Shown in pieces: positions 1 through 64,000 of a stretch of DNA of 64,000 nt. The DNA comes from Crocinitomicaceae bacterium. Lineage in GTDB: Bacteria > Patescibacteriota > Minisyncoccia > Phycocordibacterales > UBA1006. The stretch is taken from positions 8,294 through 72,293 of the forward strand of contig JBLIKX010000001.1 in NCBI GenBank assembly GCA_047637555.1, given 5' to 3'. The translations under genes and the position numbers were made by a program. The notes under the pieces were generated by a model. The model was not told the DNA's origin, ran no database searches, and saw only the letters and a program-made list of their open reading frames with translations. How positions within the stretch are numbered: position 1 is the stretch's first letter; every line of letters begins with the position of its first letter.

Positions 1-72
1 AGATAATACATAATTTAGGGTCATGGAGACATGACTTAGTATAAGTATACCGTATTTTGTTATACTGGATCT

Positions 73-507
73 ATGATTAAGGATTTACTCGAAAAGAAAA
101 AGAAGATAATACTATTTGATGGTGAATGTAATTTGTGCGATTGGTCAGTTAAAGTTCTCCTAAAGAATGATCCAAAAGATATTTTTCACTTTGCTTCATT
201 ACAATCTGAGTTGGGAAAAAAAATTCAAGAACAATATGGAATTGATTCTTCAAAATTACATTCGATTATTTTGATTGATGATTATACAAATCACAAAACA
301 AAAACCTCTGCTATTTTCTCTATAACAGGTTCAATGGGAGCTGCATGGTCATTATTTAATATTTTTTGGATTGTTCCAAAATTTATTCGTGATGCTGTAT
401 ATATGTTTATTGCAAAAAACCGATATACATGGTTCGGGAAGCAAAATACCTGCATGATAATAACTGATGATATACGTCATAAATTTTTAGATCAGCATGA
501 GTACTAA
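73..507 (+). CDS. DCC1-like thiol-disulfide oxidoreductase (DUF393 family)
   Basis: 144 aa; FDGECNLCD CxxC motif near N-terminus and AKNRYTWFG near C-terminus as in DUF393/DCC proteins; TGtTATACT box ends 6 nt before ATG. Confidence 0.75.
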   Translation: MIKDLLEKKKKIILFDGECNLCDWSVKVLLKNDPKDIFHFASLQSELGKKIQEQYGIDSSKLHSIILIDDYTNHKTKTSAIFSITGSMGAAWSLFNIFWIVPKFIRDAVYMFIAKNRYTWFGKQNTCMIITDDIRHKFLDQHEY

Positions 508-919
508 AACATTACCAATGGACCTCGGTGGTAATAATCAACCAAAGGAAGAATTTCAAAATTATGAAAAAATTATTAATGATCGTAGATCTGTTTATTC
601 AGTAAGTATTATTAAAGTTCATGACAAAAAGGGTATTAAGGCTTTTCTTAAAAGAACAAAAAAGATAAAAAACCATGACAAAGCAACACATCATTCTTGG
701 GCCGTACGTATTTCTAATAATGGTGTTATTTATGAATCTAAAAATGATGGAGGTGAGACAGGAGCAGGACAGGTAATCCTACGAATCCTCCAGAAGAAAC
801 ATATGATAGACACAATTGTTTGTGTGACGCGTTGGTATGGAGGTATTAAACTAGAAGCTGACAGGTTCAGGCACGTTCAGGACGCAACCTTCTATGCTTT
901 AAATCAAGTAATACGTTAA
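497..919 (+). CDS. IMPACT/YigZ (UPF0029) family protein
   Basis: 140 aa; ATHHSWAV...DGGETGAGQVIL...VTRWYGGIKL fits the YigZ/IMPACT N-terminal domain pattern; 11-nt overlap with upstream ORF. Confidence 0.7.
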   Translation: MSTKTLPMDLGGNNQPKEEFQNYEKIINDRRSVYSVSIIKVHDKKGIKAFLKRTKKIKNHDKATHHSWAVRISNNGVIYESKNDGGETGAGQVILRILQKKHMIDTIVCVTRWYGGIKLEADRFRHVQDATFYALNQVIR

Positions 920-972
920 CCACAAAGACCATCTCTACTCTTTGTGGTATGGTTTTGGTATAATAAAATTAT

Positions 973-1437
973 ATGAATACTATTATTCACTTGGCGGCAG
1001 ATCATGCGGGTTTTGAAATGAAAGAATTTCTTAAATCAGCTCTAGAAGAACTTGGCTATGATATAAAAGATCATGGGACTTTTTCATATGATCCTGATGA
1101 TGATTTTACTGATTTTATCCCTTTGGCCTCCAATGCTGTATCTCAAAACCCAGAAGATCGTGCCATTATATTTGGGGGTTCAGGAGAGGGCGAAGCCATG
1201 ATGGCAAATAGATTTCCACACGTAAGAGCTACGGCTTATTATCATTTTGACCCTGAGATAATCAAAGTTTCGCGTGAACATAATAATGCAAATATTTTAT
1301 CTATTGGAGCTCGATTTCTTTCAAACGAAGAGGTCTTAGAGTCAGTGTTATTTTGGTTAGAGATACCATTTCCAAATGAAGACAAATATGCCAGAAGAAT
1401 TGAAAACATGGAACTTTCTTCATTTAATGAAGAATAG
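973..1437 (+). CDS. rpiB: ribose-5-phosphate isomerase B
   Basis: 154 aa; LAADHAGFEMK and GSGEGEAMMANRFPHVRA match the RpiB/LacAB pattern; TGgTATAAT box 8 nt before ATG. Confidence 0.85.
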   Translation: MNTIIHLAADHAGFEMKEFLKSALEELGYDIKDHGTFSYDPDDDFTDFIPLASNAVSQNPEDRAIIFGGSGEGEAMMANRFPHVRATAYYHFDPEIIKVSREHNNANILSIGARFLSNEEVLESVLFWLEIPFPNEDKYARRIENMELSSFNEE

Positions 1438-1450
1438 TATTGTATAAGAC

Positions 1451-1952: not shown

Positions 1953-2406
1953 GTTTTTCCTTAATAAATTCAAGAACTTCTTTTGGGTGACTTATTGGCT
2001 TTACCTTATTCCAATGTTTTACTACTATTCCTTTTTCATTTATCAAGAATGACTCTCGAGAAATACCCTTGTATTTTTTACCAAACATACTTTTATCTTG
2101 CCAAACCCCATATTCTTGAATCATTGTAGTTTCTGTATCTGAAAGAAGAATAATATCTAGACTGTGTTTGTCGCAAAATTTTTGGTGACTTGCTACGCTA
2201 TCTTTCGAAACACCTAATACAATAGCATTGGCTTTTTCAAATTCTTTTTTTAATTCTTGAAAACCTAATGTTTCAGTGGTGCATCCTGGAGTCATATCTT
2301 TTGGGTAAAAATATATAATAATATTTTTACCAATAAATTCTTCTAAAGTTCTAAATTTTCCTGTTTGGTCAGGTAGTGAAAAGTGTGGTGCTTTTTGTTG
2401 TTCCAT
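1942..2406 (-). CDS. bcp: thiol peroxidase, Bcp/PrxQ-type peroxiredoxin
   Basis: 154 aa; PKDMTPGCTTE peroxidatic-Cys motif; TGtTATACT box 8 nt before ATG. Confidence 0.85.
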   Translation of the reverse strand: MEQQKAPHFSLPDQTGKFRTLEEFIGKNIIIYFYPKDMTPGCTTETLGFQELKKEFEKANAIVLGVSKDSVASHQKFCDKHSLDIILLSDTETTMIQEYGVWQDKSMFGKKYKGISRESFLINEKGIVVKHWNKVKPISHPKEVLEFIKEKQKA

Positions 2407-2452
2407 ATGTCTTTAGTATAACATGTATGGGTTTCTAGGTTATAATAAGCCT

Positions 2453-3145
2453 ATGAATCCATATATTATCCCAGCAATAATGCCGCAACGTTTTGAAGAT
2501 ATTGAAGAATCAGCTGGACTTGTTAAAAATCACGTAACTACTATTCAATTAGATCTCATGGATGGTAAATACGTATCTGAAAAAACTTGGCCGTTTTTCT
2601 ACACTACTGACTATGATGTTACAGCCTTAAAAGCTCAAGACAGCTCTCTTCCATATTGGGAGGATGTAAATTATGAGCTTGATCTCATGGCTGAACGACC
2701 CGAAGAAAATCTCGATACTTGGTTAGGGCTTGGTGCTTCTCGTGTTATATTCCATTATAAATCAATACATGATTGGGATAAGATACGTGCTATTGATCCT
2801 GTTATTCGTGATTTCACACAGATTGGTTGCGCTGTAACGATTCATGATAATTTAGATGACGTAGAAAACTTAATAAGTGAAAATATTTTTGATTTTGTGC
2901 AAGTCATGGGTATCTCTCGCGTTGGATATATGGGGGAACCATTTGAAGAAGAGTCATTAACTCTTATTGAAAAGCTTCATAAAAAATATCCAGAACTGAC
3001 CATTACCGTTGATGGTGGAGTATCTCGAGAAACCATCTCTGACTTATATGATGCAGGAGCAATTCGTTTTGTCTCTGGCTCGAGTGTTTTTGGGGGAGGA
3101 ATGGCAAGCGAGAACGTTGAGGATCTTACTGATTTTATAGCCTAA
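2453..3145 (+). CDS. ribulose-phosphate 3-epimerase-like protein (divergent)
   Basis: Start moved to ATG 2453 (TATAAT 6 nt upstream; track start 2423). IQLDLMDGKYV and TVDGGVS resemble Rpe motifs; rest divergent. Confidence 0.55.
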   Translation: MNPYIIPAIMPQRFEDIEESAGLVKNHVTTIQLDLMDGKYVSEKTWPFFYTTDYDVTALKAQDSSLPYWEDVNYELDLMAERPEENLDTWLGLGASRVIFHYKSIHDWDKIRAIDPVIRDFTQIGCAVTIHDNLDDVENLISENIFDFVQVMGISRVGYMGEPFEEESLTLIEKLHKKYPELTITVDGGVSRETISDLYDAGAIRFVSGSSVFGGGMASENVEDLTDFIA

Positions 3146-3555: not shown

Positions 3556-4672
3556 AGTAGGTAATAGATTTTTTTATTATAAAAATTATTTTCGATGAAA
3601 AGATTTTTTTAATTTTTTGTAATAAGGATTTTTTAGTGAATATTTTTCTCGCACCTAATGATTTTGAAAATCTTTTTTTACTATTACCCTTTATCTTGTA
3701 ATATATTTCTAATTTTTCTGGAGGCATATTGATGACCTCTTTGCATGAAGTTGAACAAGTCATTTCCATTTTTTGTTTGCAATGCATACACTGAAGAAAT
3801 AAAAGATTACAGGCATAATTGACGCAGTTTACATGCCGATCACATTTATTTTTACATTGATTACAGTGAGATATTATTATATCTCCAATTTTTTCTGGGT
3901 CTCTTTTATCAAATACGTAATTAGAGCCAAGGAATCTATTCTCTAGTCCCTCGCGCTCTACTTGGTGTTTATAATCAATAATGCCACCATGTAATTGATT
4001 AGTATCCTTAAACCCTTTATCTTTTAGATAGGCAGATGCTTTTTCACAACGTATACCCCCAGTGCAATACAGTAATATTTTTTTGTTCTCGCTCCCTGAT
4101 AACTCCGCAGCAACCACAGGTAATCCCTCACGGAAAGTATCTATTTGCGGAGTGATTGCTCCATCAAAATAACCAATTTCAGATTCATAATGATTGCGCA
4201 TATCAACCACAATTGAATTATTATCTTTCATAGCCTTGTTGAATTCTCCCGCAGTGAGATGATTACCCACATTTTCAATATCGTAATTACCCAAGGTCAA
4301 ACCGTCAGCCACAATTTTTTTTCTTATTCTTACTGAGAGGCGATGAAAAGAGGTGTTATGGTGAACTCCGATTTTAAGAGGTACATTGTTAAATTCAGAG
4401 ATAGTATAAAGTTCAGATTTAAATTGATCCCAGTTATGTTCAGGAACCGACATTTGAGCATTGATTCCCTCAGATGCAATATAAATTCTACCAAGACAAT
4501 CTAGTCGTTCCCAGGTGGAGAAAAGTCTCTCGTGCATTTCTCTCGTATTATTGATTACAATATATTTATATAATGAAACAGTGATTCGATTAAATGTTTC
4601 ACTTTTAAGTTTGAGAATTGCTTCTTCTTTGGATAAGCCATAAGGTATTTGTTTTTTACCAATTCGTTGCAT
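3548..4672 (-). CDS. trhO: rhodanese-domain protein, UPF0176/TrhO (tRNA U34 hydroxylase) family
   Basis: 374 aa; active-site loop YCTGGIRCEKAS as in YceA/TrhO; Cys-rich C-terminal tail; TAGAAT 6 nt before ATG. Confidence 0.75.
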   Translation of the reverse strand: MQRIGKKQIPYGLSKEEAILKLKSETFNRITVSLYKYIVINNTREMHERLFSTWERLDCLGRIYIASEGINAQMSVPEHNWDQFKSELYTISEFNNVPLKIGVHHNTSFHRLSVRIRKKIVADGLTLGNYDIENVGNHLTAGEFNKAMKDNNSIVVDMRNHYESEIGYFDGAITPQIDTFREGLPVVAAELSGSENKKILLYCTGGIRCEKASAYLKDKGFKDTNQLHGGIIDYKHQVEREGLENRFLGSNYVFDKRDPEKIGDIIISHCNQCKNKCDRHVNCVNYACNLLFLQCMHCKQKMEMTCSTSCKEVINMPPEKLEIYYKIKGNSKKRFSKSLGARKIFTKKSLLQKIKKIFSSKIIFIIKKSITYFK

Positions 4673-4983
4673 ATATTTATTCTAACCAAAGGTAAAAATT
4701 TTTCAATAAAAAACTGCACCCTTAACAAGGTATGGATCACTCTTATAGACCTCACAAATCATTTCAAGAACTAATACTTGAAACAAAATTCTTAGTATAG
4801 TTTAGGATACCCAGCAATAACTTTTTAGCGTGAACTCTCTCCAGCACAACTTTTTTAGTACAACAGAGACATATTGACCTCAACCGAGGGTCCTGTATTC
4901 AAATATAAACTCTAGAGTGCAATGTTTTTTTTATCACTAGATGTCAATGATCTGTGATTGCATACATCAACGTTTTTGTAATC

Positions 4984-4992
4984 TGCTATAAT
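4984..4992 (+). promoter_or_regulatory. extended -10 box (TGcTATAAT), leaderless layout
   Basis: Hexamer ends 6 nt before the transketolase ATG at 4999; no SD in between. Confidence 0.55.
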
Positions 4993-4998
4993 ATAACT

Positions 4999-5853
4999 AT
5001 GACAGATGAACGAATTAAAGAATTAGAATTAAAAGCAAATGATATTCGCATATCTATTATTGATATGTTAGAAGACGCAGGAAGTGGGCACACGGCTGGT
5101 CCACTAGGGATGGCTGACATGTTTGCAGTATTGTATTTCGAAATCATGCGACATGATCCAGAGAATGTTCATTGGGATGAACGAGACTGGCTCTTTCTCT
5201 CAAATGGACACACTGTTCCTGTACGATATGCAGCAATGGCCCATTCTGGATATTTTCCTCTAGAAGAATTAAAGACGCTACGGAAATTTGGATCAAGGTT
5301 ACAAGGCCACCCAGAACGTCATGCCTTACCGGGAATTGAACATACTGCAGGGCCGTTAGGAACTGGTTTAGGTCAGGCAGCAGGAGTTGCAACTGGACTA
5401 CTATTAGATGGAAAGAAAAATCATGTTTATTGCATTACCGGTGACGGGGAGCTGGATTGCGGAAATATCTGGGAATCAGCTATGTTTGCGGCTCATAATG
5501 GACTATCAAATCTAACGGCTATTGTTGATCGAAATAATATCCAAATTAATGGCGCAACAGAAAACGTCATGAAGTTAGAAGATCTTGCTGATAAATGGAA
5601 GTCATTTGGATGGCATGTAATTGAGATTGATGGGCATAATATCCAACAATTTGTAGACGCGATAAACCAAGCAAAAGCAATTCAAAATAAACCAACCTGT
5701 ATTATTGCTCATACTATTCCAGGAAAAGGAATCAAAGAAATTGAAAACGAGTTTCAATGGCACGGTAAACCACCAACAGCGGAAGAGGAAAAACGTTTCT
5801 TAAAAGAATTGAGGACATTAAGAGGTAAAATTGAGGCGACTCATTCTGAGTAA
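4999..5853 (+). CDS. transketolase, N-terminal (TPP-binding) subunit
   Basis: Start at ATG 4999 (track start 4954 lies upstream of the -10 box); GDGELDCGNIWE...DRNNIQI TPP-binding motif; only the N-terminal half of a transketolase. Confidence 0.85.
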   Translation: MTDERIKELELKANDIRISIIDMLEDAGSGHTAGPLGMADMFAVLYFEIMRHDPENVHWDERDWLFLSNGHTVPVRYAAMAHSGYFPLEELKTLRKFGSRLQGHPERHALPGIEHTAGPLGTGLGQAAGVATGLLLDGKKNHVYCITGDGELDCGNIWESAMFAAHNGLSNLTAIVDRNNIQINGATENVMKLEDLADKWKSFGWHVIEIDGHNIQQFVDAINQAKAIQNKPTCIIAHTIPGKGIKEIENEFQWHGKPPTAEEEKRFLKELRTLRGKIEATHSE

Positions 5854-7579: not shown

Positions 7580-7907
7580 TATTTTCTTTTGAAATCATTT
7601 TAAGTTTCTCTAAATTCACTGGAGATATTATTTGAAGAGTCGCTTCAATGTTTGAACTTGCTTTAGACTTTTGTTCTTCAAGAGATAATTTCTTCTGATT
7701 GTTTTCATTAGTTTCAGGAAGCTCTCGGAGTTGCTTCTCAAGATCATTTATTGTTTCAGACAAATTTAAAATAAGATCTATATGGATGCTTTCACGGTTG
7801 TTATATTTTTCCTCCATATTAGAAGCATGTTCATTAGCAAATGCTTCTTTTTCATCGTTACTGAGGTGGTTATTTTTTGGCGTTTCAAGGTTAGGTTCGA
7901 AGTTCAT
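7566..7907 (-). CDS. hypothetical acidic coiled-coil protein, paralog of ORF 5856-6332
   Basis: 113 aa; N-terminus MNFEPN...NEHASN parallels MENYKPN...LEHEVASN with equal spacing; TATAAT 6 nt before ATG; TGA stop. Confidence 0.45.
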   Translation of the reverse strand: MNFEPNLETPKNNHLSNDEKEAFANEHASNMEEKYNNRESIHIDLILNLSETINDLEKQLRELPETNENNQKKLSLEEQKSKASSNIEATLQIISPVNLEKLKMISKENNPSE

Positions 7908-8162
7908 ATTTTTATTATACCAAATAAATGTTTAAAATCTAGAATCTATCCAGCATGTCTTAAATTAATATGTTCTAACTATTGTTTTAATTTTTAATAC
8001 TATTATATATATTCTTAGATTTCCATAGCGCTCCTTCTTTTTGTAAGTATTCTTTTTTTAAGATATTCTATTTTTGCTAAATTATTTCAACAGTGTCTAT
8101 GAAGTGACTATCTTTACTTATTTTTAAATTATTAAATAAACTTTCCATGTTATTTTTATATC

Positions 8163-8201: not shown

Positions 8202-9206
8202 CTAGATTTTTTCTGGTTTATAATCTTCTGGTGCATTAGCAAGATATTCTTCAAGTTGCTCTTGTGTGAGTAATCCTTCTTGAGCTCCAATATATTGAAC
8301 AACGTTCATAGAGTTAATTGGCGCCCATGATAATGCTTCAGCAACTGTTTTTCCATGTCCCAGAGCAATAGTAAATGCTGATGAAAATGAATCCCCAGCA
8401 CCTGTTCGTTCTACTGGTGGTTTTGGGTCTGGGTAAATTCGATGGAACCAATACTCATCATTATATGAATCGTAGGCATAGGCTCCATCAGGTCCATCAG
8501 TAATACATACAATTTTTGGACCAAGTTCATGCATTTGTTTCATAAGATTTTTTATATCATCTGAGTCTATTTTAAGAATCTTTTGAGCTTCTTCTACGTT
8601 ACAGAAAAACACCTCAGTCGCTGAGTAAATATCTGAAAGTTTTTCTTTACCGAGAGAAATTTGGAATGTTCCTGGTTGAAACGCCATTTTGATATTATTT
8701 TCTTTTATCCAAGTTGCAATATCTGCGTGATATTGCATCGAATCTTCTCCAACAGAAGAGAAATAGACCCACTTAGGAATGAGATCTTCTGTTTGCTTGG
8801 CAAGATCGTAGTTATAGTTCTCATGTTTAATAAGAATTGTTCGCTCTGCTTGAAAAGATAGAACATAATGATAATTAGTATTTTTACCATCTTCTACTGT
8901 TACATAATCAGTGATTACTCCATTTTCTTTTAGCGCTTCAATACATTCTTTACCGAATTGATCATTTCCTACATGTGTCATTGTCGTTGAGGTCAAACCT
9001 AATCGTGCCGCAGATACTGCTGCGTTTGGACCATTACCAACTGCCTTCACTACCTTTACGCTGTCATACGGAATTTTGTCCCCAAATCGCATTTCAAGCA
9101 TCTCAGTTCCGTTATGTTCCTCTACCTCAGCATCTTGTAATTTAATAAATGCATCAATTACGATGTCACCGATTGCTAAGAAATCGATATTTTTTTCTTT
9201 ATTCAT
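8202..9206 (-). CDS. PfkB/ribokinase-family carbohydrate kinase
   Basis: 334 aa; GAGDSFSSAF near C-terminus and N-terminal GDIVID typical of PfkB kinases; TGaTATAAT 6 nt before ATG. Confidence 0.8.
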   Translation of the reverse strand: MNKEKNIDFLAIGDIVIDAFIKLQDAEVEEHNGTEMLEMRFGDKIPYDSVKVVKAVGNGPNAAVSAARLGLTSTTMTHVGNDQFGKECIEALKENGVITDYVTVEDGKNTNYHYVLSFQAERTILIKHENYNYDLAKQTEDLIPKWVYFSSVGEDSMQYHADIATWIKENNIKMAFQPGTFQISLGKEKLSDIYSATEVFFCNVEEAQKILKIDSDDIKNLMKQMHELGPKIVCITDGPDGAYAYDSYNDEYWFHRIYPDPKPPVERTGAGDSFSSAFTIALGHGKTVAEALSWAPINSMNVVQYIGAQEGLLTQEQLEEYLANAPEDYKPEKI

Positions 9207-9253
9207 GATCAGATTATATCATATCTTTATCTGCGTGATATAATAACTCTTAT

Positions 9254-10135
9254 ATGAAAACATTAAAAGAATATTTATACGATGCTCAAAAGAACAACAG
9301 AGCTATTGCCCATTTTAACGTTGCAAATTCAGATATGCTGATGTCTATCTTTGCTGCTGCACAAAAAGTATCTCAAGATACAGATGAGAAGATCCCTGTA
9401 GTAATTGGGGTTTCAGAAGGAGAGCGTGATTCATTTGGAGTGACGCAAATTGTTGACTATGTAACGAGCTTACGTAACGAACATGATTATCCAATTTTTT
9501 TAAATGCTGATCACACATATTCTGTAGAACGAACCTGTGAAGCTATTGACGCTGGTTTTGATATGGTTATTTATGATGGGGCGAAAATTTCTCATCAAGA
9601 AAACCTTGAAAATACGAAAGCAGTCGTTGCTTATCGTAATAAGGTAAATCCTGAATGTTTAGTAGAGGCTGAGTTTGGTTTTATTGGTGGGGGTTCAAAT
9701 ATTAAAGATGAAATTCCAGAAGGTGTTTCAGAAGCGACCATGACAAAACCAGAAGAAGCAAAAGATTTTGTTGATGCTTCGGGGGTAGAGGTACTAGCTC
9801 CTTCAGTAGGAAACTTACACGGAATGGTAAAATCTGGTAATCCTGCATTAAATGCTGAACGTGTATCTGCCATCTGGGAAGCAACAAAAACTCCTCTTGT
9901 ATTGCACGGAGGTTCAGGGTCAAGTGATGAAGATTTTATAAAAGTTATAAACGCAGGAATTTCACTGATCCACATTAGTACTGAACTACGAATTGCATAT
10001 CGAAAAGGTATAGAAGAAGCATTTGCTTCTGATGCAGAAGTTCTGGCTCCATATAAATATTTCAAACAAGCACAAACAAATGTTATGTTGATAGCTGAAG
10101 AACGAATACGTTTGTTTTGGGGTTTAATAGTATAG
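9254..10135 (+). CDS. fba: class II fructose/ketose-bisphosphate aldolase
   Basis: 293 aa; NADHTYS, GNLHG and LVLHGGSGS motifs of class II aldolases; TGaTATAAT 9 nt before ATG. Confidence 0.8.
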   Translation: MKTLKEYLYDAQKNNRAIAHFNVANSDMLMSIFAAAQKVSQDTDEKIPVVIGVSEGERDSFGVTQIVDYVTSLRNEHDYPIFLNADHTYSVERTCEAIDAGFDMVIYDGAKISHQENLENTKAVVAYRNKVNPECLVEAEFGFIGGGSNIKDEIPEGVSEATMTKPEEAKDFVDASGVEVLAPSVGNLHGMVKSGNPALNAERVSAIWEATKTPLVLHGGSGSSDEDFIKVINAGISLIHISTELRIAYRKGIEEAFASDAEVLAPYKYFKQAQTNVMLIAEERIRLFWGLIV

Positions 10136-11419: not shown

Positions 11420-11494
11420 TTTCTTAGTTTTTACTATTATAAATAATAATAAATATTTAGTCAAATGATATGCCTATGGTATTCTAGGCAAAGT

Positions 11495-13967: not shown

Positions 13968-14027
13968 AATTTTAGTATATCCAATTGCCCATAAAAAAAC
14001 ACTCGATAATGAGTATTTTTTTATGTG

Positions 14028-14330: not shown

Positions 14331-14355
14331 ACTTTTATCATAGCAAAATATTTAA

Positions 14356-15745: not shown

Positions 15746-15804
15746 GTGTACAGTATAGGTAAAAAAATAATTTCGTCATCTTACAAAAAACTGATATAAA
15801 AAAT

Positions 15805-16747: not shown

Positions 16748-16765
16748 ATCTCTTAGAGTAAAATT

Positions 16766-18908: not shown

Positions 18909-18910
18909 GA

Positions 18911-18920
18911 TACAATTCTA
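18911..18920. promoter_or_regulatory. overlapping divergent -10 boxes (TACAAT on +, TAGAAT on -)
   Basis: 16-bp lepB/DUF192 intergenic region; + box is 8 nt before ATG 18925, - box is 6 nt before ATG 18908. Confidence 0.5.
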
Positions 18921-45648: not shown

Positions 45649-45713
45649 GCATCTCCTCTTTTACAAGTTCTCGTAGGGCTTTTTTGTTTTAATAAATTCG
45701 CTATAGTGTTTGT

Positions 45714-52279: not shown

Positions 52280-52309
52280 TTTTGTATATTAAAGTGATAC
52301 ACTAATGGT

Positions 52310-53518
52310 ATGAATGTAGTTATATCTGCAATAATTAATACAGCTTTTGTTTGGCTTCCTGTTATCTTAGGGGTTGTTTTTTGGAAAACATATCTTTCTT
52401 ATAAGCAGAAAGCTTTTTTGGGAAATATAACATATACCATGTTGGAAATCAGTATCCCTAGAAATGTCTATAAATCTCCACAAGCAATGGAGATCGTTAT
52501 TGATGTTCTTCATCATCTTGGTGGAGGAGCTATGGGTAAATATAATCGTATATGGGATGGCGCTGTCTTATATCCTTCATCGTTGGAGTTAGTATCTATC
52601 GAAGGAAAAATTTATTTCTTTATTAGATGTTCTGATAAATTAGCACGAACCGTAAAAACCGCTCTTTATTCACAATACCCTCAGGCTGAAATTAATGAAG
52701 TTGATGATTATACACGCTATGTGCCTAATTATAATTATCACCAAGACTCTTGGAGTTTATATGGAGCTGATTATAAACTAGCAAAGGATGATTTTATGCC
52801 AATTAAAACTTATATTGATTATGAGTTAGATAAAAATGTAGGCTCGTTAGATGAAGAACAGAAAATTGACCCTATTGCGCCACTATTAGAATATTTGGGA
52901 ACGATCAGGTCTGGTGAGCAAATATGGATTCAATTCATTGTGCGTGCTGATCAATTTACAACATGGAGATCTGAAGCTAAAAAATTTATTGAGGAAGTAA
53001 TGGGAAGAGGGAAGCCTATTTTGGATGATGAACCATTTACTACTGTTAAATTAACACATGCCGAGCAAGAACAAGTAAAGGCAATTGAAAGAAGTCTGTC
53101 AAAGTCTGCCTTCGAATGTACTGTGCGTGCCCTATATATGGCACGAAAAGAAAATGAAAATAAAGGAGTTAAGGGCTTTTTTAAGGGACCAATTTTTAAA
53201 GCTTTTAATTCTAATTATCTAAATGCATTTCGAAAAAATGAAGATACTACCTATGATTGGATTTGGCAGGATCTCACAGGATCACGCTATCCGATACTTC
53301 AAAGACGGTTTTTCAATGATTATGTTGAGCGTGCTGGTTTAAATGAAGGGTTCTTGAGGTATGTAAATTTCTTATGGTATAAACGTAATAAACCTATGGT
53401 TTTAACCAGTGAGGAATTAGCTACCCTGTTTCATATTCCTGGACGTGTATCTGAAACAACCGCTGTTGAGCGAATTGAAGCTACAAAATCAGAACCACCA
53501 ACAAACCTACCGATGTAA
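52310..53518 (+). CDS. hypothetical membrane protein
   Basis: 402 aa; N-terminal TM helix then LEISIPRNVYKSPQAMEIVIDVLHHLGG. From memory this resembles N-terminal regions of CPR TraD/VirD4-like proteins, but no ATPase motifs are present. Confidence 0.35.
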   Translation: MNVVISAIINTAFVWLPVILGVVFWKTYLSYKQKAFLGNITYTMLEISIPRNVYKSPQAMEIVIDVLHHLGGGAMGKYNRIWDGAVLYPSSLELVSIEGKIYFFIRCSDKLARTVKTALYSQYPQAEINEVDDYTRYVPNYNYHQDSWSLYGADYKLAKDDFMPIKTYIDYELDKNVGSLDEEQKIDPIAPLLEYLGTIRSGEQIWIQFIVRADQFTTWRSEAKKFIEEVMGRGKPILDDEPFTTVKLTHAEQEQVKAIERSLSKSAFECTVRALYMARKENENKGVKGFFKGPIFKAFNSNYLNAFRKNEDTTYDWIWQDLTGSRYPILQRRFFNDYVERAGLNEGFLRYVNFLWYKRNKPMVLTSEELATLFHIPGRVSETTAVERIEATKSEPPTNLPM

Positions 53519-54504: not shown

Positions 54505-54529
54505 ATAGTGATTGTGTACAATACAAGGT

Positions 54530-55069
54530 ATGAAGAATAAGAACTTAGCATTTATTGATATTGAGACTACTGGTTTTGACCCTGAGACACAGGAGATTAT
54601 TGAAATTGGTTGTGTCATTATAAAACAAAACGAAGGAGTTCCTGGTGAAATAGTAGAAGAATTTGAATTAAAAATCAAACCTGAAAAATTAGAAAACGCA
54701 GACCCAGAAGCACTTTCAATTAATGGGTATAACGAAGCAGAATGGTTATTTGCATCGAACTTAAAACAGGCTATGAAAGTTTTTGCAGATAAAACCAAAG
54801 AATGCATTTTTGTCGCACACAATGCTGCATTTGATTGGTCGTTTATTGCAAAAGCATTTGTTACAACAGGTGTCAAAAATAAAATGTTCTATGCTAAAAT
54901 CGATACTATTTCATTTGCCTTTGCCAAACTACACAAGGATGCAACTGTTACTCGATATAATTTAGGTTCTCTTTGTGACAGATTTGGTATTACGAATGAT
55001 CGTGCCCATACTGCTCTAGCTGATACGCATGCAACTCTTGAGGTATATAAAAAACTTCTTGAGCTATAA
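54530..55069 (+). CDS. DnaQ-like 3'-5' exonuclease
   Basis: Exo I FIDIETTG, Exo II VAHNAAFDWSF, Exo III HTALADTHAT; start at ATG 54530 (TACAAT 7 nt upstream). Confidence 0.75.
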   Translation: MKNKNLAFIDIETTGFDPETQEIIEIGCVIIKQNEGVPGEIVEEFELKIKPEKLENADPEALSINGYNEAEWLFASNLKQAMKVFADKTKECIFVAHNAAFDWSFIAKAFVTTGVKNKMFYAKIDTISFAFAKLHKDATVTRYNLGSLCDRFGITNDRAHTALADTHATLEVYKKLLEL

Positions 55070-57984: not shown

Positions 57985-58014
57985 ATCTAAAGTGTATCAT
58001 GGTAGTATATAATT

Positions 58015-58494
58015 ATGACAGAATTTGAAATGATATTACGATTGGTACTAGCCTTAGTACTTGGTGCGTTTATTGGCGTAGAGCGAATCCATGCAGGAAA
58101 AAGTGCAGGAATTAGAACTCTCGGATTGGTTGCCTTGGGTTCAGCATTATTTACTATTATCTCGGAAAACGTTGTTGCTGGGTATCCTGGTCTAGACGTT
58201 GATCCATTACGCGTTGGTGCTCAGATAGTAACAGGTATTGGTTTCTTAGGAGCTGGTATGATTATATTTAAGCAAGATCACCTTTCAAACCTTACAACAG
58301 CTGCTGGGGTTTGGGTTGCGGCAGGAATTGGAATGTCGGTTGGTTTTGGTATGTATGGAGTGGGGATTGCGGTAACTATACTTGTTATTATTACCTTTTC
58401 TTTAATGCTTAATTTAGAAATTTACGTTAAACGATTATTTAACAAAAATAACCATTCACAAAAAAATGACCTTACTGAATCTGCTATGAAATAG
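58015..58494 (+). CDS. mgtC: MgtC/SapB-family membrane protein
   Basis: 159 aa; RLVLALVLGAFIGVER...GIRTLGLVALGSALF pattern; TGgTAGTAT 6 nt before ATG. Confidence 0.8.
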   Translation: MTEFEMILRLVLALVLGAFIGVERIHAGKSAGIRTLGLVALGSALFTIISENVVAGYPGLDVDPLRVGAQIVTGIGFLGAGMIIFKQDHLSNLTTAAGVWVAAGIGMSVGFGMYGVGIAVTILVIITFSLMLNLEIYVKRLFNKNNHSQKNDLTESAMK

Positions 58495-58558
58495 TTATTG
58501 ATACAAACCTTGTAGGATTTTTCTTGCTCAAAATGAGTCTTCATCTACAATATACGAG

Positions 58559-59197
58559 ATGAATGTTACTGATGTTTCAAAAAAATACTTATGGATAGAG
58601 CTTATATTACTCTTTGTAATTATTCCTCTTTTACTTGCTCTTCCAGCTTTTATAGAATTAAAAATATTCTCTGTAATAATCGGTTTTGTATATGTACTAT
58701 TCGCTCTCTATGAATATACAAAATTCAAAATTAAAAAACCTCAAAAAAAGCTTATTACATTTTTTTGGAAATCAATTATATTTCGTCTAATTCCAATTAT
58801 AATTTTTGGTCTTATTTTTATAAAATTTATATCACCTGAATCTTTCTTTCGTTTGGTTATTGAGGATACTCGTTTGTGGATAGTAATTATTTTTTTCTAT
58901 AGTCTTGGTTCGGTATTACCTCAAGAGATTATTTACCGAAATTTCTTTTTTCAAAGATACCACTCGTTAATATTGAATCGGAAGTTATTTATTATTATAA
59001 ATGCATTTCTTTTTGCAATAAGTCATTCTTTTCTTAATAGTTGGATTGTTATCGCTGTTACGTTCTTGGGTGGATTAATGTTTGCTTTGACCTATGAAAA
59101 AACTAGATCTACGATATTAGTCACCATAGAGCACTCACTCTATGGTTTAGTATTATTTACAATTGGAATTGGCCCATTACTTGCGTTTCCATCTTAG
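58559..59197 (+). CDS. CPBP-family intramembrane metalloprotease (CAAX protease-like)
   Basis: 212 aa polytopic; PQEIIYRNFFF, FAISHSF and EHSLYG motifs. Confidence 0.7.
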   Translation: MNVTDVSKKYLWIELILLFVIIPLLLALPAFIELKIFSVIIGFVYVLFALYEYTKFKIKKPQKKLITFFWKSIIFRLIPIIIFGLIFIKFISPESFFRLVIEDTRLWIVIIFFYSLGSVLPQEIIYRNFFFQRYHSLILNRKLFIIINAFLFAISHSFLNSWIVIAVTFLGGLMFALTYEKTRSTILVTIEHSLYGLVLFTIGIGPLLAFPS

Positions 59198-59345
59198 AAA
59201 AAAACTTAACAGAAATCTCGTATTTATTTTTGTTGCAGAAATTAAATAGATAAAAAGAGAAGTGCTACTATTGTGGATCTATGTAATAAATATAAATCGA
59301 CTTTTTTAATTTGTTTTTTGCCTTCTTTCATTTAGAATGATAGAT

Positions 59346-61157
59346 ATGACATCACAGGAAATACGAAAACGATTCTTAGCGTTCTTTGAAAAACGCGGAC
59401 ATGCTATCTTGCCTTCAGCATCATTAATTACTACTGATGATCCAAAGGCCACAAATGCAACATTATTCAATACTGCGGGTATGCAACCCTTGATTCCTTT
59501 TTTAATGGGACAAAAACATGATACTGGAAAGCGTCTCGCAAGTTCACAAAAATGTGTGCGAACAGGTGACCTGGAAGAAGTCGGTGATAATACTCACGTG
59601 ACATTCTTTGAGATGCTTGGGAACTGGTCTCTTGGTGATTATTTTAAAAAGGAGGCTATCTCTTGGTCATGGGAATTCCTGACTGATACTGATGAAGGTC
59701 TTGGTCTTGATCCAGAGCGTTTATATGTAACAGTATTTATTGGAAATGATATGGTTCCACGTGATAATGAGGCTGTAGAAATTTGGAAACAGTTTATTCC
59801 TGAAAATCGAATTTATTACCGAGACTCAAAAGACAACTGGTGGACCGCAGGACCTAATTCTCCAGCAGGACCATCAACTGAAATATTTTATGACCTTACC
59901 GGAGAACTTGGTGATCTATCTGATACAGAATTTGAAAAAGCTGATAAAGATCAACAGGTCGTGGAGATTTGGAACGATGTATTTATGGTATATAAACAAG
60001 AAAGAGGTGAGGTAACAGGTAAACTCTCACAGAGAAATGTGGATACGGGTGCAGGGTTGGAGCGTTTAACTGCAGTTACGCAAGGAAAAAATAATATTTT
60101 TGATACTGATTTATTTTTACCACTACTAAATATCATAAAGGAAAATGCAGAAAAATATGAACAAAAGCATGCCCGAATTTTAGCTGATCATATTAAGACA
60201 TCTGTATTTCTCATTAATGATGGTGTTATTATTTCAAATACAGGGCGAGGGTATGTACTACGACGTATATTAAGGCGGGCTTATTCATCACTCGAAGCAA
60301 TGGAATGTTCTGAAAAAATTATTCCAGAACTTATTCATACTGTTGTTAATATGTATAAAGATTTATATTTTAAAAATGTTGATGAAAAGAAGATAGCAAT
60401 TAAAATAAAGGTAGTTGCAACAGAAATGGATAAGGTTATTAATATCATCAAGCGTGGAGTAAAAATATTTAAGAAAATAAAAGAAAATCCACATACCTTG
60501 ATTACAGGAAAATTTTTAATGGATCTAGAGCAAACCCAAGGTCTGCCATTATCTATGTCAAAAAAATTGGCCAAAAAATTCGGTATTGAAATTTCAGATG
60601 ACTCATTAGAGGAATGTAAAAAAATAAGAGTTGAACATCAGGAACTATCTCGAACGGGAGCAGATCAAAAATTTAAAGGAGGTTTATCTCAGGACACACC
60701 AAAAATTAGAGCACTTCATACCGCTACGCACTTGATGCTTGCTGGTCTTCGTAAGGAACTCGGAAATGACGTTCATCAAAAAGGTTCAAATATTACCGAA
60801 GAGAGAACACGTTTTGATTTTACGCATGGAGAAAAAGTTTCTCGAGAGATATTAAATAAGGTGGAATTATATGTAAGGGATGCAATTACTACAAATGCGA
60901 AAATGGGCGTTCAGTTAATGGAAAAGGAAAAGGCAAAGAATTCTGATGTTGTTGGTTCATTTTGGGAAAAATATCCAGATATCGTAAAGGTATGGACTAT
61001 TATAGATAAAGACCAAAATATTTACTCAAAGGAATTGTGCGGAGGACCACATGTGGAAGATCTATCACAGATTGCAGAATTTGGGGTATTTAAAATAAAA
61101 AAAGAGGAATCGTCATCCGCAGGCGTTCGTCGTATCAAAGCCATTCTGGAAAAATAA
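59346..61157 (+). CDS. alaS: alanyl-tRNA synthetase, short form (603 aa)
   Basis: Start at MTSQEIRKRF (TAGAAT 7 nt upstream). Catalytic motifs FNTAGMQPL and SQKCVRTGD...THVTFFEMLGNWSLGDYFK; editing-domain HTATHLM...CGGPHV. The sequence ends about 40 residues after CGGPHV. Confidence 0.85.
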   Translation: MTSQEIRKRFLAFFEKRGHAILPSASLITTDDPKATNATLFNTAGMQPLIPFLMGQKHDTGKRLASSQKCVRTGDLEEVGDNTHVTFFEMLGNWSLGDYFKKEAISWSWEFLTDTDEGLGLDPERLYVTVFIGNDMVPRDNEAVEIWKQFIPENRIYYRDSKDNWWTAGPNSPAGPSTEIFYDLTGELGDLSDTEFEKADKDQQVVEIWNDVFMVYKQERGEVTGKLSQRNVDTGAGLERLTAVTQGKNNIFDTDLFLPLLNIIKENAEKYEQKHARILADHIKTSVFLINDGVIISNTGRGYVLRRILRRAYSSLEAMECSEKIIPELIHTVVNMYKDLYFKNVDEKKIAIKIKVVATEMDKVINIIKRGVKIFKKIKENPHTLITGKFLMDLEQTQGLPLSMSKKLAKKFGIEISDDSLEECKKIRVEHQELSRTGADQKFKGGLSQDTPKIRALHTATHLMLAGLRKELGNDVHQKGSNITEERTRFDFTHGEKVSREILNKVELYVRDAITTNAKMGVQLMEKEKAKNSDVVGSFWEKYPDIVKVWTIIDKDQNIYSKELCGGPHVEDLSQIAEFGVFKIKKEESSSAGVRRIKAILEK

Positions 61158-61182: not shown

Positions 61183-61199
61183 GTGATATAATTAAATAT

Positions 61200-61541
61200 A
61201 TGAAAAAAGCCTTTGAATTAGTCCTTGTATTTATTATTTTTTACGGTGTTTATTCTGCGTTCAATAAAATTACATCAGGTTTCATGCCAGAATTATCAAA
61301 ATTCTGGGTGGTTATTATTAGTCTCCTAGTAGCAGCAGGGTTACTCCTGTTATACTCAGGAATCCTTGTTTCAAGAACAAAACTCAAATTAACTGAAAAA
61401 ATGACTAAAACTGTTGTAGAATTGGAACACAAGATTCACGAAAAAGAAGTTGAGATAGAACATAAAGATTCAGAGTTAAAAAATGCTTTTAAGATCAAGC
61501 ATTCAGTAGAAGAAGAAGCGGAGAAAACCCTGCAAAATTAA
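61200..61541 (+). CDS. small membrane protein with C-terminal coiled coil
   Basis: 113 aa; two TM helices then charged heptads; TGaTATAAT 7 nt before ATG. Confidence 0.4.
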   Translation: MKKAFELVLVFIIFYGVYSAFNKITSGFMPELSKFWVVIISLLVAAGLLLLYSGILVSRTKLKLTEKMTKTVVELEHKIHEKEVEIEHKDSELKNAFKIKHSVEEEAEKTLQN

Positions 61542-61563
61542 GAGTTACTTGCCCTATAGTGCT

Positions 61564-62724
61564 ATGTCAAAAAAAATTACTACAAAAAAAAATACCATCA
61601 TTTTCGATATAGATAGTTCATCAATTGGAGCTGCATTAGTTCAATATGGTTATACTGTAAACAAAAAAAATATTTCAACTATTGAGCTGTGTTCTGTTCG
61701 TAAGAATATTACTGGTGGCAATAAATATTCATTTGAAGAATTTTTTAAGAGAACAGCGAGAACTTTAGATGAAGTTGCTCAAGAAATTTATCTCCAATCA
61801 CTCGTACCATTAGACGAAATAGTTATTAATGTCGCTGTTCCTTGGTCGAGTTCACAAAAAAGGAACCTAGTGTATTCTTCAAAAAAAGCTTTTCTTTTTA
61901 CTCATGAGTTATCTACAAAACTTATTCACCAGGATTCTGAACTTTCTTTTGATATAAATATCGACTATGCGGGACATGATGTTGAATTAATACAAAGAAA
62001 AAATCTAGAAGTATATGGAAACGGATACCCTATGAGAAATCCAATAGGTAAAGAAGTCTCAGATATTGAGATACATTTTCTTACATCAGTAATGTCTTCA
62101 GGTACTAAAAATATTTTTACTGACATCATTGAAAGAGTATTTCATAGAACTCCGCGATTTATATCGAACACTTTTGTTCAATATCAGGAACTACGTGTAC
62201 TTTTGCCTCATGTTGATAATGCGGTAATCGTTGATATCAGTGGTGAGGTAACTGAAATGATTGTTGTTAAGGAAGATAATCTATTACATATTGGATCTAT
62301 TCCTGTTGGAACGCAGGGCATCATTCGTCATTTATCTGATGAATTACATATATCTCCCGCAAAAGCACGTACTCTTGTAGATTTATACAAAAACACAGGT
62401 CTTGGTGTTGAATCAAAAGAAACTCAAAATGCTATCAAAAAATCATTTAGGTATTGGTTCAGAGAATTTTATACCCTGCTTGATGACTACAGCAAGCAAG
62501 GACTCCTCCCTCATGTTTTGATCGTTAATGCTCATAATGAAGTTAGGTCGTGGTTTGAAGAATTACTCATGGCAGAGGATTCCCTCAGAGAACATATGCA
62601 TACACAGGGACGAATCGAACTTCTTCATATTCCAATACGAAGTTCTGATGCGAATACTACACACGCTTTTTTGGATCCAGCTCTGGGTATTATTGCTGCG
62701 TATATTGAGCAAGAAACAAAATAA
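61564..62724 (+). CDS. actin-fold ATPase-like protein (distant FtsA/PilM-like)
   Basis: IIFDIDSSSIGAALV (phosphate-1-like) and VVDISGEVTEMIVV...IPVGTQGI (phosphate-2/adenosine-like) in actin-fold order; start ATG 61564 preferred over TTG 61549. Confidence 0.4.
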   Translation: MSKKITTKKNTIIFDIDSSSIGAALVQYGYTVNKKNISTIELCSVRKNITGGNKYSFEEFFKRTARTLDEVAQEIYLQSLVPLDEIVINVAVPWSSSQKRNLVYSSKKAFLFTHELSTKLIHQDSELSFDINIDYAGHDVELIQRKNLEVYGNGYPMRNPIGKEVSDIEIHFLTSVMSSGTKNIFTDIIERVFHRTPRFISNTFVQYQELRVLLPHVDNAVIVDISGEVTEMIVVKEDNLLHIGSIPVGTQGIIRHLSDELHISPAKARTLVDLYKNTGLGVESKETQNAIKKSFRYWFREFYTLLDDYSKQGLLPHVLIVNAHNEVRSWFEELLMAEDSLREHMHTQGRIELLHIPIRSSDANTTHAFLDPALGIIAAYIEQETK

Positions 62725-62729
62725 AAAGT

Positions 62730-64000
62730 ATGAAAAAATCTGGTCGAAAAAAAAATATAGATGGCATTTCATTGCGAAAAAAAAGAACGAGAGCAACTCG
62801 TTCTTTTCATAAAGCAAAGCCGGCTGTAAAAATACCTCTTAATGTATCTACAAAACCAATTACTCGAAGAAGAGATTTAAATATAAAACTCTTCTCTCGC
62901 AAGGAATTACTAAAAAACACACCTCTATATATTTCAAAAGAAGTACTCCCTAGAAGAAACAGGCAGATAAAGAAAAAAATTATTCACACTATTGACAAGG
63001 TTTTCAATCATAAAATCACTTCTTTATTTATTAAGATAATTATTGTGGTTGCTGCTATTTTCATTTTTTTTAATAATCGAGACAGAACTACAATGACCGT
63101 TCGGCCACATTATCAGTACCTTGAGTTATCAGAGTTAATTAAGGTATATAAAAACCCAAAGGAAGGAGATTTAGGTTTTGATATCATTGCTATAACTGAA
63201 GAGGTAACATCTTCGGTAATAGCAGACGAAGAACGCCCAATGCTGGTTAAATCTTCAGGCGAAATAATTATTTATAATAATTATAGTACAGAACCTCAAC
63301 GATTGATTCCTGAGACGCGCTTCAAAACGGCGGGAGGAAAGATTTTTTTCTTAGGAAAGGAAGAAGTAATTATCCCTGGTAAGGTAGGTGATAACATAGG
63401 TAGTACTACGGCTATTGTATATGCAGAAAAAGCAGGGGAACAATATAATATAGATACTACCGATTTTAGCGTTCCAGGTTTTAAGGAGTCTGGATTGATT
63501 GATAAGTATAATGGAATATATGCAGTCTCTACACAAATGATGGAAGGGGGGTTCATTGGGAGTGAAGCATATGTTTCTGAAAATGAACGTTTAAAGGCAG
63601 AACAAGCATTAAGCATAGATCTTGTTGATCGACTCCGCAGTAGACTTAATAGGGAAAAAACAGAGAATACTTTCTTAGTAGAGGGGAGTGAAAAGTATAG
63701 GTTTAAAGAGTCAGAATACCTTTCAGATGCTCTTGGTTCTGCGGGTGTATTATCCCAACGGGGAACTATTCTCGCTATTGTTGTAGGTAATAAATTCCTA
63801 GGTGAATACATTGCAGATAATTATTTTGAAATAAGTGATACTGAAAGTGTTAAGATGTTACAGTATGATGATGCACGCTTAACACTCAATAATAATACTT
63901 TTGATTTTGAGAATAGTGATATTGCCGAAATTAATGTTTCAGGTTCACTTCTTTATGTATGGAACATTAATAAAGAGTCATTAGCAAATAACATAACAAA
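62730..64000 (+). CDS. hypothetical bitopic membrane protein, 3'-truncated by window end
   Basis: Open frame from ATG 62730 to the window edge (absent from the track because no stop is reached). Basic ~100-aa N-terminus, TM helix IKIIIVVAAIFIFF, then a large extracytoplasmic part. The 171-aa antisense track ORF 63296-63811 is its shadow. Confidence 0.55.
   Translation, partial: MKKSGRKKNIDGISLRKKRTRATRSFHKAKPAVKIPLNVSTKPITRRRDLNIKLFSRKELLKNTPLYISKEVLPRRNRQIKKKIIHTIDKVFNHKITSLFIKIIIVVAAIFIFFNNRDRTTMTVRPHYQYLELSELIKVYKNPKEGDLGFDIIAITEEVTSSVIADEERPMLVKSSGEIIIYNNYSTEPQRLIPETRFKTAGGKIFFLGKEEVIIPGKVGDNIGSTTAIVYAEKAGEQYNIDTTDFSVPGFKESGLIDKYNGIYAVSTQMMEGGFIGSEAYVSENERLKAEQALSIDLVDRLRSRLNREKTENTFLVEGSEKYRFKESEYLSDALGSAGVLSQRGTILAIVVGNKFLGEYIADNYFEISDTESVKMLQYDDARLTLNNNTFDFENSDIAEINVSGSLLYVWNINKESLANNIT

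Follow-up and report, generated by a model that had tools for sequence, protein, structure and literature searches.

Extended -10 boxes directly before start codons and absence of Shine-Dalgarno sequences in a 64-kb Paceibacteria genome stretch

How transcription and translation are started is the question raised by the 64-kb stretch of DNA analysed here (64,000 nucleotides, hereafter the window), in which a TAnnnT hexamer stands 6-9 nucleotides (nt) before the ATG of many genes and no Shine-Dalgarno (SD) sequence is found there. A sequence-only reading had proposed that these hexamers are -10-only promoters which start transcription 0-3 nt from the AUG. This proposal was supported by the position of the hexamer, by the TG signal in front of it, by its bias towards the starts of transcription units and by its conservation in related species. 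We put the probability at about 0.8 that most of about 28 genes would yield messenger RNAs (mRNAs) with a 5′ untranslated region (UTR) of at most 3 nt.

The window was found to contain 34% G+C, about 61 protein genes, one tRNA-Thr and one RNase P RNA scoring just under the Rfam threshold. The housekeeping set included enzymes of the pentose-phosphate pathway and glycolysis and aminoacyl-tRNA synthetases, together with fmt, def, lepB, trmD, rpoB-rpoC-dnaG-rpoD, rpsB-tsf, mreBC and uvrAB. The identical RpoB protein was found in metagenome contigs only (JGI 3300054693 and 3300054976; Logan runs SRR2841xxxx). The nearest RpoB among the GTDB species representatives belonged to a Candidatus Paceibacteria metagenome-assembled genome (MAG) with 92% identity, followed by matches of 61-83% in Paceibacterota/Parcubacteria bins (Nomura-, Taylor-, Yonath-, Zambryskii-, Kaiser-, Adler- and Vogelbacteria). 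By these protein matches the organism is an uncultured member of the class Paceibacteria (Parcubacteria/OD1, now Minisyncoccia; phylum Minisyncoccota; Candidate Phyla Radiation (CPR)/Patescibacteria). For comparison, loci centred on rpoB were taken from 80 related species (about 1.4 Mb in all, with 30-64% G+C), and the window was extended along the contig by 7.5 kb on its right side (L087) and by 1.6 kb on its left side (L086).

The sequence-only reading had listed 30 start codons, and the TAnnnT hexamer was found 6-9 nt before the ATG at all 30 coordinates, with the sequences given for it (TATAAT, TATACT, TAGAAT, TACAAT and others). As circular picking of starts was to be avoided, the first ATG of each of the 61 non-overlapping open reading frames (ORFs) of at least 90 aa was taken as the gene start. 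Under this rule TANNNT was present at a spacer of 6-9 nt in 27 of the 61 starts versus 214 of 2253 other ATGs of the window (9.5%; binomial p=1.5e-12). The positional scan against shuffled upstream regions, which had been named earlier as a check for the whole genome, gave in the window 11.8 +/- 2.9 matches per 61 starts when the upstream 40 nt were shuffled, so that the enrichment held here as well; the earlier chance estimate of 1 in 8 fell between the two controls (9.5% and 19%). A hexamer with no more than one mismatch to TATAAT preceded 21 of the 61 starts versus a background of 2.6% (p=2.7e-18). The spacer was 6 nt at 15 starts, 7 nt at seven, 8 nt at three and 9 nt at two, with counts of 0-6 at the flanking positions. 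In a motif-first scan of 220 TGNTANNNT sites, the ATG of an ORF of at least 60 aa was found at spacers of 6, 7, 8 and 9 nt in 9, 2, 3 and 2 cases, respectively, with about 0.5 ATG per position elsewhere. The modal spacer of 6 nt places the seventh base past the hexamer, which is the usual +1, at the A of the ATG, and spacers of 7-9 nt imply leaders of 1-3 nt.

Of the roughly 30 unit starts claimed earlier, 28 were found to be solid, and the two at 16768 and 23482 on the + strand were rejected as genes. The former opens a 16-aa mini-ORF within a perfect tandem repeat of 47 nt x 3.9 copies; the latter opens a non-conserved mini-ORF of 12 aa in a stretch that could not be aligned between relatives. 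The ATG 11495 of truB is probably an additional case missing from the earlier list. By this count of boxes and ATGs, about 28-29 of about 46 transcription-unit starts (about 60%) would be of the leaderless type.

The bases around the hexamer were found to be those of a promoter. When the 30 sites were aligned on the hexamer, position -14 was G in 21 of them, and T stood at -15 in 17 and at -17 in 22; none of these bases had been used in choosing the sites, and the consensus was that of an extended -10 element, TnTGnTAnAAT. The TGn extension, said earlier to be frequent, was present as TG at -15/-14 in 14 of the 30. The -35 region contained only an enriched T at -34 (24 of 30 sites); such a T would fit a vestigial TTG if the spacing is the 16 nt seen in the three full promoters of the window. 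A two-hexamer sigma-70 scan did not rise above shuffles (85 vs 93, 80 vs 82 and 65 vs 84), which indicates that full -35/-10 promoters are not the rule.

The hexamer was restricted largely to the starts of transcription units. A gene was called tightly coupled when it lay no more than 15 nt behind the preceding gene, and the motif was found at 2 of 15 such genes versus 28 of 46 others (Fisher p=0.002). If the motif served ribosome binding, internal cistrons should carry it as well, and its lack at 13 of the 15 speaks against such a role. Intrinsic terminators were enriched in the window (14, 24 and 19 found versus about 9.5 expected), and strong terminators were located directly upstream of boxes, for example at 52248-52282 before 52310 and at 57958-57976 before 58015. 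The overlapping -10 boxes claimed for the divergent pair at 18911-18920 were present as described.

The SD sequence was absent, in agreement with the earlier claim. GGAG, GAGG or AGGA was found at -20 to -4 in 0 of the 30 leaderless-type starts, and SD-like tetramers at these positions preceded at most 2 of the 31 other starts, a frequency not above that of random positions. Before rpsB and rpmA, which encode ribosomal proteins, an SD was likewise absent, and in the right-hand extension neither box nor SD was present before infA, rpsM, rpsK, rpsD, rpoA, rplQ, rplM and rpsI. The region upstream of the non-leaderless starts was A-rich and G-poor, with A at -3 in 22 of 31, A at -6 in 22 of 31 and T at -1 in 20 of 31. 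The internal cistrons were positioned from a 23-nt overlap to a 13-nt gap relative to the preceding gene, a spacing that would fit translational coupling or reinitiation. No rRNA was found in the window, in its extensions or in 99 fetched loci, where a search with the conserved 16S 3′ region gave no true match, and the rplK-rplA region lay outside both the window and its 7.5-kb extension; the upstream neighbours of rpoB were trmD and the helicase gene, not rplJL. In Parcubacteria, the CCTCCT anti-SD motif was detected in only 48% of 16S genes, overlapping the group that lacks uL1, and bS21 is often absent, the functional meaning for initiation being left unclear (PMC9297842).

The layout recurred in the related species. 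The hexamer was found at a spacer of 6-9 nt in 288 of 942 first-ATG starts versus 6.5% of other ATGs (p=5e-111), with the peak at 6 nt and with relatives of up to 49-64% G+C among those that replicated the signal, and TG preceded 41% of the start-proximal hexamers versus 6.6% of other hexamers. The motif-first scan of the relatives gave 72, 56, 26 and 20 ORF-opening ATGs at spacers of 6, 7, 8 and 9 nt, respectively, versus about 10 elsewhere, and at least one such site was present in 65 of the 80 species. The logo of 226 related sites read TnTGnTAnAAT with a faint -35, SD-like tetramers preceded only 7% of the starts, and G fell to 9-14% at -8 to -1 in 654 non-leaderless starts. This recurrence assigns the layout to the lineage and not to the window alone.

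Single genes were found to behave in the same way. In the closest species, the orthologs of trmD, def, lepB and the gene at 34278 kept the hexamer at 6-9 nt within diverged flanks. The spacer was 6-8 nt in the trmD orthologs of L007-L010, L012 and L013, and 8 nt (L007) and 6 nt (L008) in those of peptide deformylase, and the orthologs of the 34278 gene in L006-L008 contained TGgTACAAT, TGgTATAAT and TATAAT, respectively, at 6-9 nt. Both overlapping boxes of the 16-nt divergent region between lepB and the DUF192 gene were kept in L007 and L008. For dnaG, the leaderless type was confined to lineages in which the gene is first in its unit, and rpoB was of this type in just 6 of 74 cases.

The mechanism we propose is as follows. 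A SigA-type sigma factor would recognise the extended -10 element (TnTGnTAnAAT) with its vestigial -35, whose distance to the ATG is most often 6 nt and otherwise 7-9 nt. Transcription by RNA polymerase would then begin on the A of the AUG or 1-3 nt before it, so that the mRNA would be leaderless, and the ribosome with fMet-tRNA would bind the 5′-terminal AUG directly, without SD pairing. The remaining genes, that is the operon-internal cistrons and the leadered rpoB, rpsB and helicase genes, would be started by SD-independent binding to unstructured RNA, by termination-reinitiation coupling or by both. The sequence itself shows the motif with its position, its enrichment, its bias towards unit starts and its conservation, as well as the absence of SD and the canonical sigma factor; the site of transcription start, the mode of ribosome loading and the loss or disuse of the anti-SD we infer. 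The principal sigma factor RpoD, of group 1, could be aligned over its full length with SigA chains of known structure (E~1e-103) and was found to contain the conserved HMxE motif of region 3.0, whose H and E read the TG extension, followed by a conserved region 4.2; it is presumed to read the promoters described here. The bacterial initiation machinery genes fmt, def and infA were present in the window and its extension.

It is very improbable, in our estimate, that the boxes are real -10 elements on mRNAs which are functionally not leaderless, either with another transcription start or with use of a downstream in-frame codon, the listed ATGs then lying within short 5′ UTRs. Such a reading is favoured by the genes in which the first residue aligned to Pfam lies far from the ATG (57 in the DUF192 protein, 106 in the Rce1-like protein and 22 in TrmD), by the public call of TrmD as 210 aa instead of 230, and by a few further units with a -10-like box 10-20 nt upstream (55131, 48241, 21399 and 11419; implied leaders of about 4-14 nt). 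However, the majority of the Pfam domains begin within residues 1-16 of the listed ATGs, and more than 50 orthologs, whose alignment begins at residue 1, share the N-terminal M-x-F of TrmD. The sharp spacer peak at 6 nt, without spread, also speaks against it, and starts further downstream would lack an SD as well as every other recognisable signal.

We regard it as very improbable that the hexamer is a non-SD ribosome-binding or translation-enhancer signal acting at the RNA level on leadered mRNAs and not a promoter, as in Bacteroidota (GeneMarkS-2 group B). A genome without any SD must possess another initiation signal, and the motif stands at the usual distance of a ribosome-binding site (RBS), promoter and RBS sharing the 6-8-nt distance according to GeneMarkS-2 (PMC6028130). 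Against it stands the scarcity of the motif at tightly coupled genes; this internal-gene test is the group B criterion of GeneMarkS-2. The TG extension, with G at -14, and the T at -17 match contacts of sigma region 3.0 and have no role in an RBS. The motif was furthermore found directly behind terminators, on both strands of divergent intergenic regions of 16 nt and 47 nt, and, as a hexamer of the same type, before the RNase P RNA gene. That TAnnnT is simply common at 34% G+C and favourable cases were picked, as might be thought because shuffled upstream regions still gave 11.8 matches and 2 of 30 sites were spurious mini-ORFs, is refuted by the enrichment under the objective rule and with the strict motif, by the peak at 6 nt, by the replication in relatives of high G+C and by the independent enrichment of the TG extension.

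Several points weigh against the leaderless, promoter-based reading itself. Two of the 30 listed sites are not genes, and spacers of 8-9 nt imply leaders of 1-3 nt and not strictly leaderless mRNAs. The genes at 37533, 14330, 54530 and 61200 lie 8-60 nt behind a gene on the same strand and are probably also present on read-through polycistronic transcripts. In the relatives, 19% of the tightly coupled starts were positive versus 29-37% of the others, a weaker contrast than in the window, which makes the first-ATG/TANNNT criterion noisy. The anti-SD might be present but unused here, as in Bacteroidota. The only set of CPR transcription starts found in the literature, that of Nanosynbacter, is inferred from coverage. 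Logan/JGI contigs were tried as a proxy for transcripts and rejected, as all nine with the 61200 gene ran across its start and are DNA assemblies.

The choice of start codon was in agreement with the layout at many genes. Of the 30 listed ATGs, 21 were found to be the first ATG, GTG or TTG behind an in-frame stop. Among the start corrections proposed earlier, that to 34278 was backed by orthologs and by the public call, and those to 59346, 54530, 2453 and 4999 were compatible with the Pfam coordinates; overall the corrections are plausible. The public JGI calls were found to differ from the promoter-plus-ATG reading at TrmD (210 vs 230 aa), at RNase T (from TTG 54512) and at alanyl-tRNA synthetase (AlaRS; from 59337, three codons longer than the start at 59346), and the call for truB is probably ten codons too long. 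Public starts would be misplaced in this lineage because gene finders expect an RBS, and similar mis-calls are likely throughout CPR annotations. Two further features of the starts were dropped. A bias for AAN at the second codon (22 of 30 in the window) was not replicated in the relatives (31% vs 29%), and a pyrimidine at -1 (29 of 30 sites) was not diagnostic, being common at non-leaderless starts too (24 of 31; relatives 67%).

The individual sites are given in Table 1, together with the three full promoters and the sigma factor gene.

Table 1. Leaderless-type sites, full promoters and principal sigma factor gene of the window. "Pfam n and m" means that protein residue n is aligned to profile position m.
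Box or promoter	Spacer (nt)	ATG	Coordinates	Strand	Gene or product	Remarks
TGtTATACT	6	73	58..75	+	DCC1-like thiol-disulfide oxidoreductase	
TGgTATAAT	8	973	956..975	+	RpiB	Pfam 5 and 1
TGtTATACT	8	2406	2404..2423	-	AhpC/peroxiredoxin	Pfam 4 and 3; divergent from 2453
GgtTATAAT	6	2453	2438..2455	+	ribulose-phosphate 3-epimerase (Rpe)	Pfam 5 and 2; ORF extendable to 2423
GgtTAGAAT	6	4672	4670..4687	-	rhodanese/UPF0176 protein	
TGcTATAAT	6	4999	4984..5001	+	transketolase N-terminal subunit	ORF extendable to GTG 4954
TGgTATAAT	6	7907	7905..7922	-	hypothetical protein, 113 aa	
TGaTATAAT	6	9206	9204..9221	-	PfkB-family kinase	divergent from 9254
TGaTATAAT	9	9254	9236..9256	+	class II fructose-bisphosphate aldolase (FBA)	Pfam 3 and 2
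TGgTATTCT	9	11495	11477..11497	+	TruB	added candidate; first ATG of ORF at 11465, ten codons earlier
GgaTATACT	6	13967	13965..13982	-	glutaredoxin-PhnA/YjdM fusion	Pfam 3 and 1
TGcTATGAT	6	14330	14328..14345	-	glutaredoxin-like protein	Pfam 5 and 1
TATACT	6	15745	15743..15760	-	methionyl-tRNA formyltransferase	L007 ortholog also with TATACT at 6 nt
TACTCT	7	16747	16745..16763	-	peptide deformylase (Def)	Pfam 3 and 2; ORF extendable to TTG 16783
TAGAGT	8	16768	16751..16770	+	16-aa ORF	doubtful; in tandem repeat
TGcTAGAAT	6	18908	18906..18923	-	signal peptidase I (lepB)	hexamer overlaps that of 18925
TGaTACAAT	8	18925	18908..18927	+	DUF192 protein	
GgaTATACT	6	20644	20629..20646	+	TrmD	
TAGAAT	6	23482	23467..23484	+	12-aa ORF	doubtful; not conserved in relatives
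TATAAT	9	34278	34260..34280	+	hypothetical protein, 143 aa	public call also 143 aa
TGaTAGATT	6	36197	36182..36199	+	thioredoxin-like protein	
GgTATAAT	7	37533	37531..37549	-	hypothetical protein, 114 aa	internal promoter at tsf end
TATTAT	9	39222	39204..39224	+	class II aminoacyl-tRNA synthetase	
GgTATACT	7	42420	42404..42422	+	queuine tRNA-ribosyltransferase	
TATAGT	6	45714	45699..45716	+	UvrB	
TGaTACACT	6	52310	52295..52312	+	DUF8128 protein	strong terminator 13 nt upstream
TACAAT	7	54530	54514..54532	+	RNase T/DEDDh exonuclease	Pfam 8 and 2; public call from TTG 54512
TGgTAGTAT	6	58015	58000..58017	+	MgtC family	Pfam 10 and 1; terminator upstream
TACAAT	7	58559	58543..58561	+	Rce1-like protease	
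TAGAAT	7	59346	59330..59348	+	AlaRS	Pfam 5 and 1; public call from 59337
TGaTATAAT	7	61200	61184..61202	+	hypothetical protein, 113 aa	heads FtsA-like cluster
TTGACA-N16-TAATAT			23602..23629	+	rpoB	leader about 130 nt; conserved in 27 species
TTGACA-N16-TATAAT			21979..22006	+	PIF1-type helicase	leader about 30 nt; terminator 21947-21969 just upstream
TTGTAA-N16-TAATAT			38810..38837	-	rpsB-tsf	leader about 130 nt
			32599..33768	+	rpoD/sigA, principal sigma factor	region 3.0 and region 4.2 conserved

A further site was found out of sample in the right-hand extension, about 4.4 kb beyond the window (L087 17140-17180), where a terminator hairpin was followed by TGtTATAAT, a spacer of 7 nt and the ATG of a 92-aa protein. 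The RNase P RNA (20036-20365, - strand) was of bacterial class A and full length (96.6 bits, E=6e-30), and was missed by default annotation because its score lies under the Rfam gathering score of 100. TACACT stood 5 nt ahead of the first base covered by the model, with a terminator at 20401-20427 just upstream, and this box fits -10-proximal starts in general. An orphan promoter was observed behind the bidirectional strong terminator 23220-23249, where TGgTATAAT is present at 23252-23260 with no ATG 6-9 nt downstream; it could drive a small RNA in the gene-free part at 23.26-23.6 kb.

The three full promoters that had been set apart earlier, those of rpoB, the helicase gene and rpsB, were found as claimed. 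The leader of rpoB (23602-23700; L006-L084) contained a TTGACA-N16/17-TAnnnT promoter followed, 12-17 nt later, by the invariant GATTGAGTT. The 9-mer GATTGAGTT lies in the loop of a hairpin; the sequences of the two arms vary among 27 species yet remain complementary, for example in the covarying pairs CCTAAT/ATTAGG, CTTCA/TGAAG, GATTG/CAATC and CAAGC/GCTTG. The position-constrained stem score was 138.5, whereas shuffled sequences gave 103 +/- 5.8 and arms swapped between species gave 101.5 +/- 6, and in 0 of 2000 trials of each control was the observed score reached. This was the only stem test to give significance; the unconstrained longest-stem test did not (161 vs 154 +/- 6), an alignment by MAFFT with RNAalifold gave 0 pairs, and no Rfam family matched the leader. 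The leader is a candidate for a new cis-regulatory RNA.

Two other sequences were observed around the rpoB leader. The 12-mer CTGATTGAGTTC was found twice, at 23646-23657 in the leader and, some 200 nt nearer the upstream end, at 23443-23454, where the TAGAAT of 23470-23475 follows closely. With one mismatch allowed, at least two matches were present in 6 of 100 window shuffles, and the second copy may have arisen by chance. The sequence AAGGAGGTG, a perfect SD in a genome otherwise without SD, was located at 23497-23505, 8 nt before the ATG of a 7-codon ORF, in the non-conserved part of the region upstream of rpoB.

Some observations concern other parts of the window. The tandem repeat at 16766-16947 (100% identity between copies) fills the gap between def and hisS, and its unit contains ATGAAGAAAAGAGCAATAGCGAC. 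The transketolase was found to be split into an N-subunit (4999-5853), an unannotated ORF of 158 aa (5856-6332) and a C-subunit (6334-7320), all tightly coupled. A fragment like the 5′ half of a tRNA (GCCATCATAGCTCAGTTGGTAGAGCGCCACC...) was present at about 19947-19990 on the + strand, followed by a terminator at 20008-20036. No fitting 3′ half was found for it, and it was not called by ARAGORN or Rfam; the remnant of a tRNA is conceivable, as is an unusual or split one. The segment 44688-45713, between a 93-aa gene and the leaderless-type uvrB, contained no ORF above 64 aa and no Rfam match at E<=1. An unusual transcription-related architecture was found in the 356-aa product of the gene at 51179-52249 (+ strand), in which a Sigma70 region 4 domain at the N-terminus is combined with a HARE-HTH domain, the fold known from the delta subunit of RNA polymerase.

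Among the known systems, the layout was found to be closest in form to GeneMarkS-2 group C, in which 25-50% of operons have a Pribnow box 6-8 nt ahead of the start of their first gene; group C covers 90% of Actinobacteria and 97% of Deinococcus-Thermus, and the remaining genes use SD (PMC6028130). The position of TANNNT, the restriction to unit starts, the absence of SD at these starts and the AUG at the predicted 5′ end are shared with group C members such as Mycobacterium tuberculosis and Deinococcus deserti. In contrast to group C, the other genes here are also without SD, the leaderless type makes up about 60% of unit starts, the genome is AT-rich and not GC-rich, the TnTG extension is Firmicute-like, and Paceibacteria/CPR are outside the lineages reported. 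The likeness to the extended -10 promoters of Gram-positive bacteria (TRTG, -16 region) extends to TnTGnTAnAAT, the weak or absent -35 and the conserved TG-contacting residues of region 3.0; unlike the usual promoters of that type, the +1 is predicted at the start codon, and full -35/-10 elements are kept for the leadered rpoB, rpsB and helicase genes.

The haloarchaea (Haloferax volcanii and Halobacterium salinarum; group D) resemble the window in being mostly leaderless with a genome largely without SD-anti-SD pairing. In Haloferax, leadered mRNAs are not known to depend on SD pairing either. The signals differ, as a bacterial sigma-70 extended -10 is found here versus the archaeal TATA/BRE at about -26 with archaeal initiation factors. 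In Bacteroidota (group B), Baez et al. are said to have described, in 2019, Kozak-like A-rich upstream regions, and the non-leaderless genes of the window are likewise A-rich and G-poor upstream without SD. Bacteroidota keep the anti-SD but sequester it. Unlike the window, they are not predominantly leaderless and contain -7 TAnnTTTG and -33 TTG elements with a divergent sigma A, as against the TnTGnTAnAAT logo with a canonical sigma factor. A common non-SD motif at first and internal genes, as in group B, was not found, the internal genes here showing only A-richness.

The Parcubacteria subgroup lacking the anti-SD (Tsurumaki et al. 2022, PMC9297842) resembles the present organism in its class-level lineage. 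That study covers rRNA and ribosomal proteins only, and not mRNA layout, promoters or leaderless genes. In the library searched, no paper linking CPR, Patescibacteria or Parcubacteria with leaderless genes was found. The layout itself is known from Actinobacteria, Deinococcus and archaea, and the variant trait here is the total absence of SD.

For the lineage as a whole, we lean slightly towards the view that the class, or at least the Nomura/Kaiser/Yonath/Taylor/Zambryski-type Paceibacteria sampled, gave up SD/anti-SD pairing entirely and uses two modes of initiation, leaderless from extended -10-only promoters for most first cistrons and SD-independent for the rest, through A-rich context or through coupling and reinitiation. 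If true, the loss of the anti-SD reported for about half of the Parcubacteria, so far unexplained, and the frequent loss of bS21 and uL1 would find their functional counterpart here; the leaderless, SD-free layout would give a mechanism to a loss so far without known consequence. Extensive leaderless initiation would be extended to a third, very large bacterial radiation beyond Actinobacteria and Deinococcus-Thermus, and with a promoter-plus-ATG model the start codons called in thousands of CPR MAGs would be corrected. The compact promoters, of about 15 nt and without UTR, would fit genome streamlining and may be useful expression parts for these organisms, and a concrete hypothesis is given for Minisyncoccus, the first cultured member. 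If the view holds, the reduced ribosomes of these bacteria would be a natural bacterial model of SD-free translation, resembling that of haloarchaea or mitochondria.

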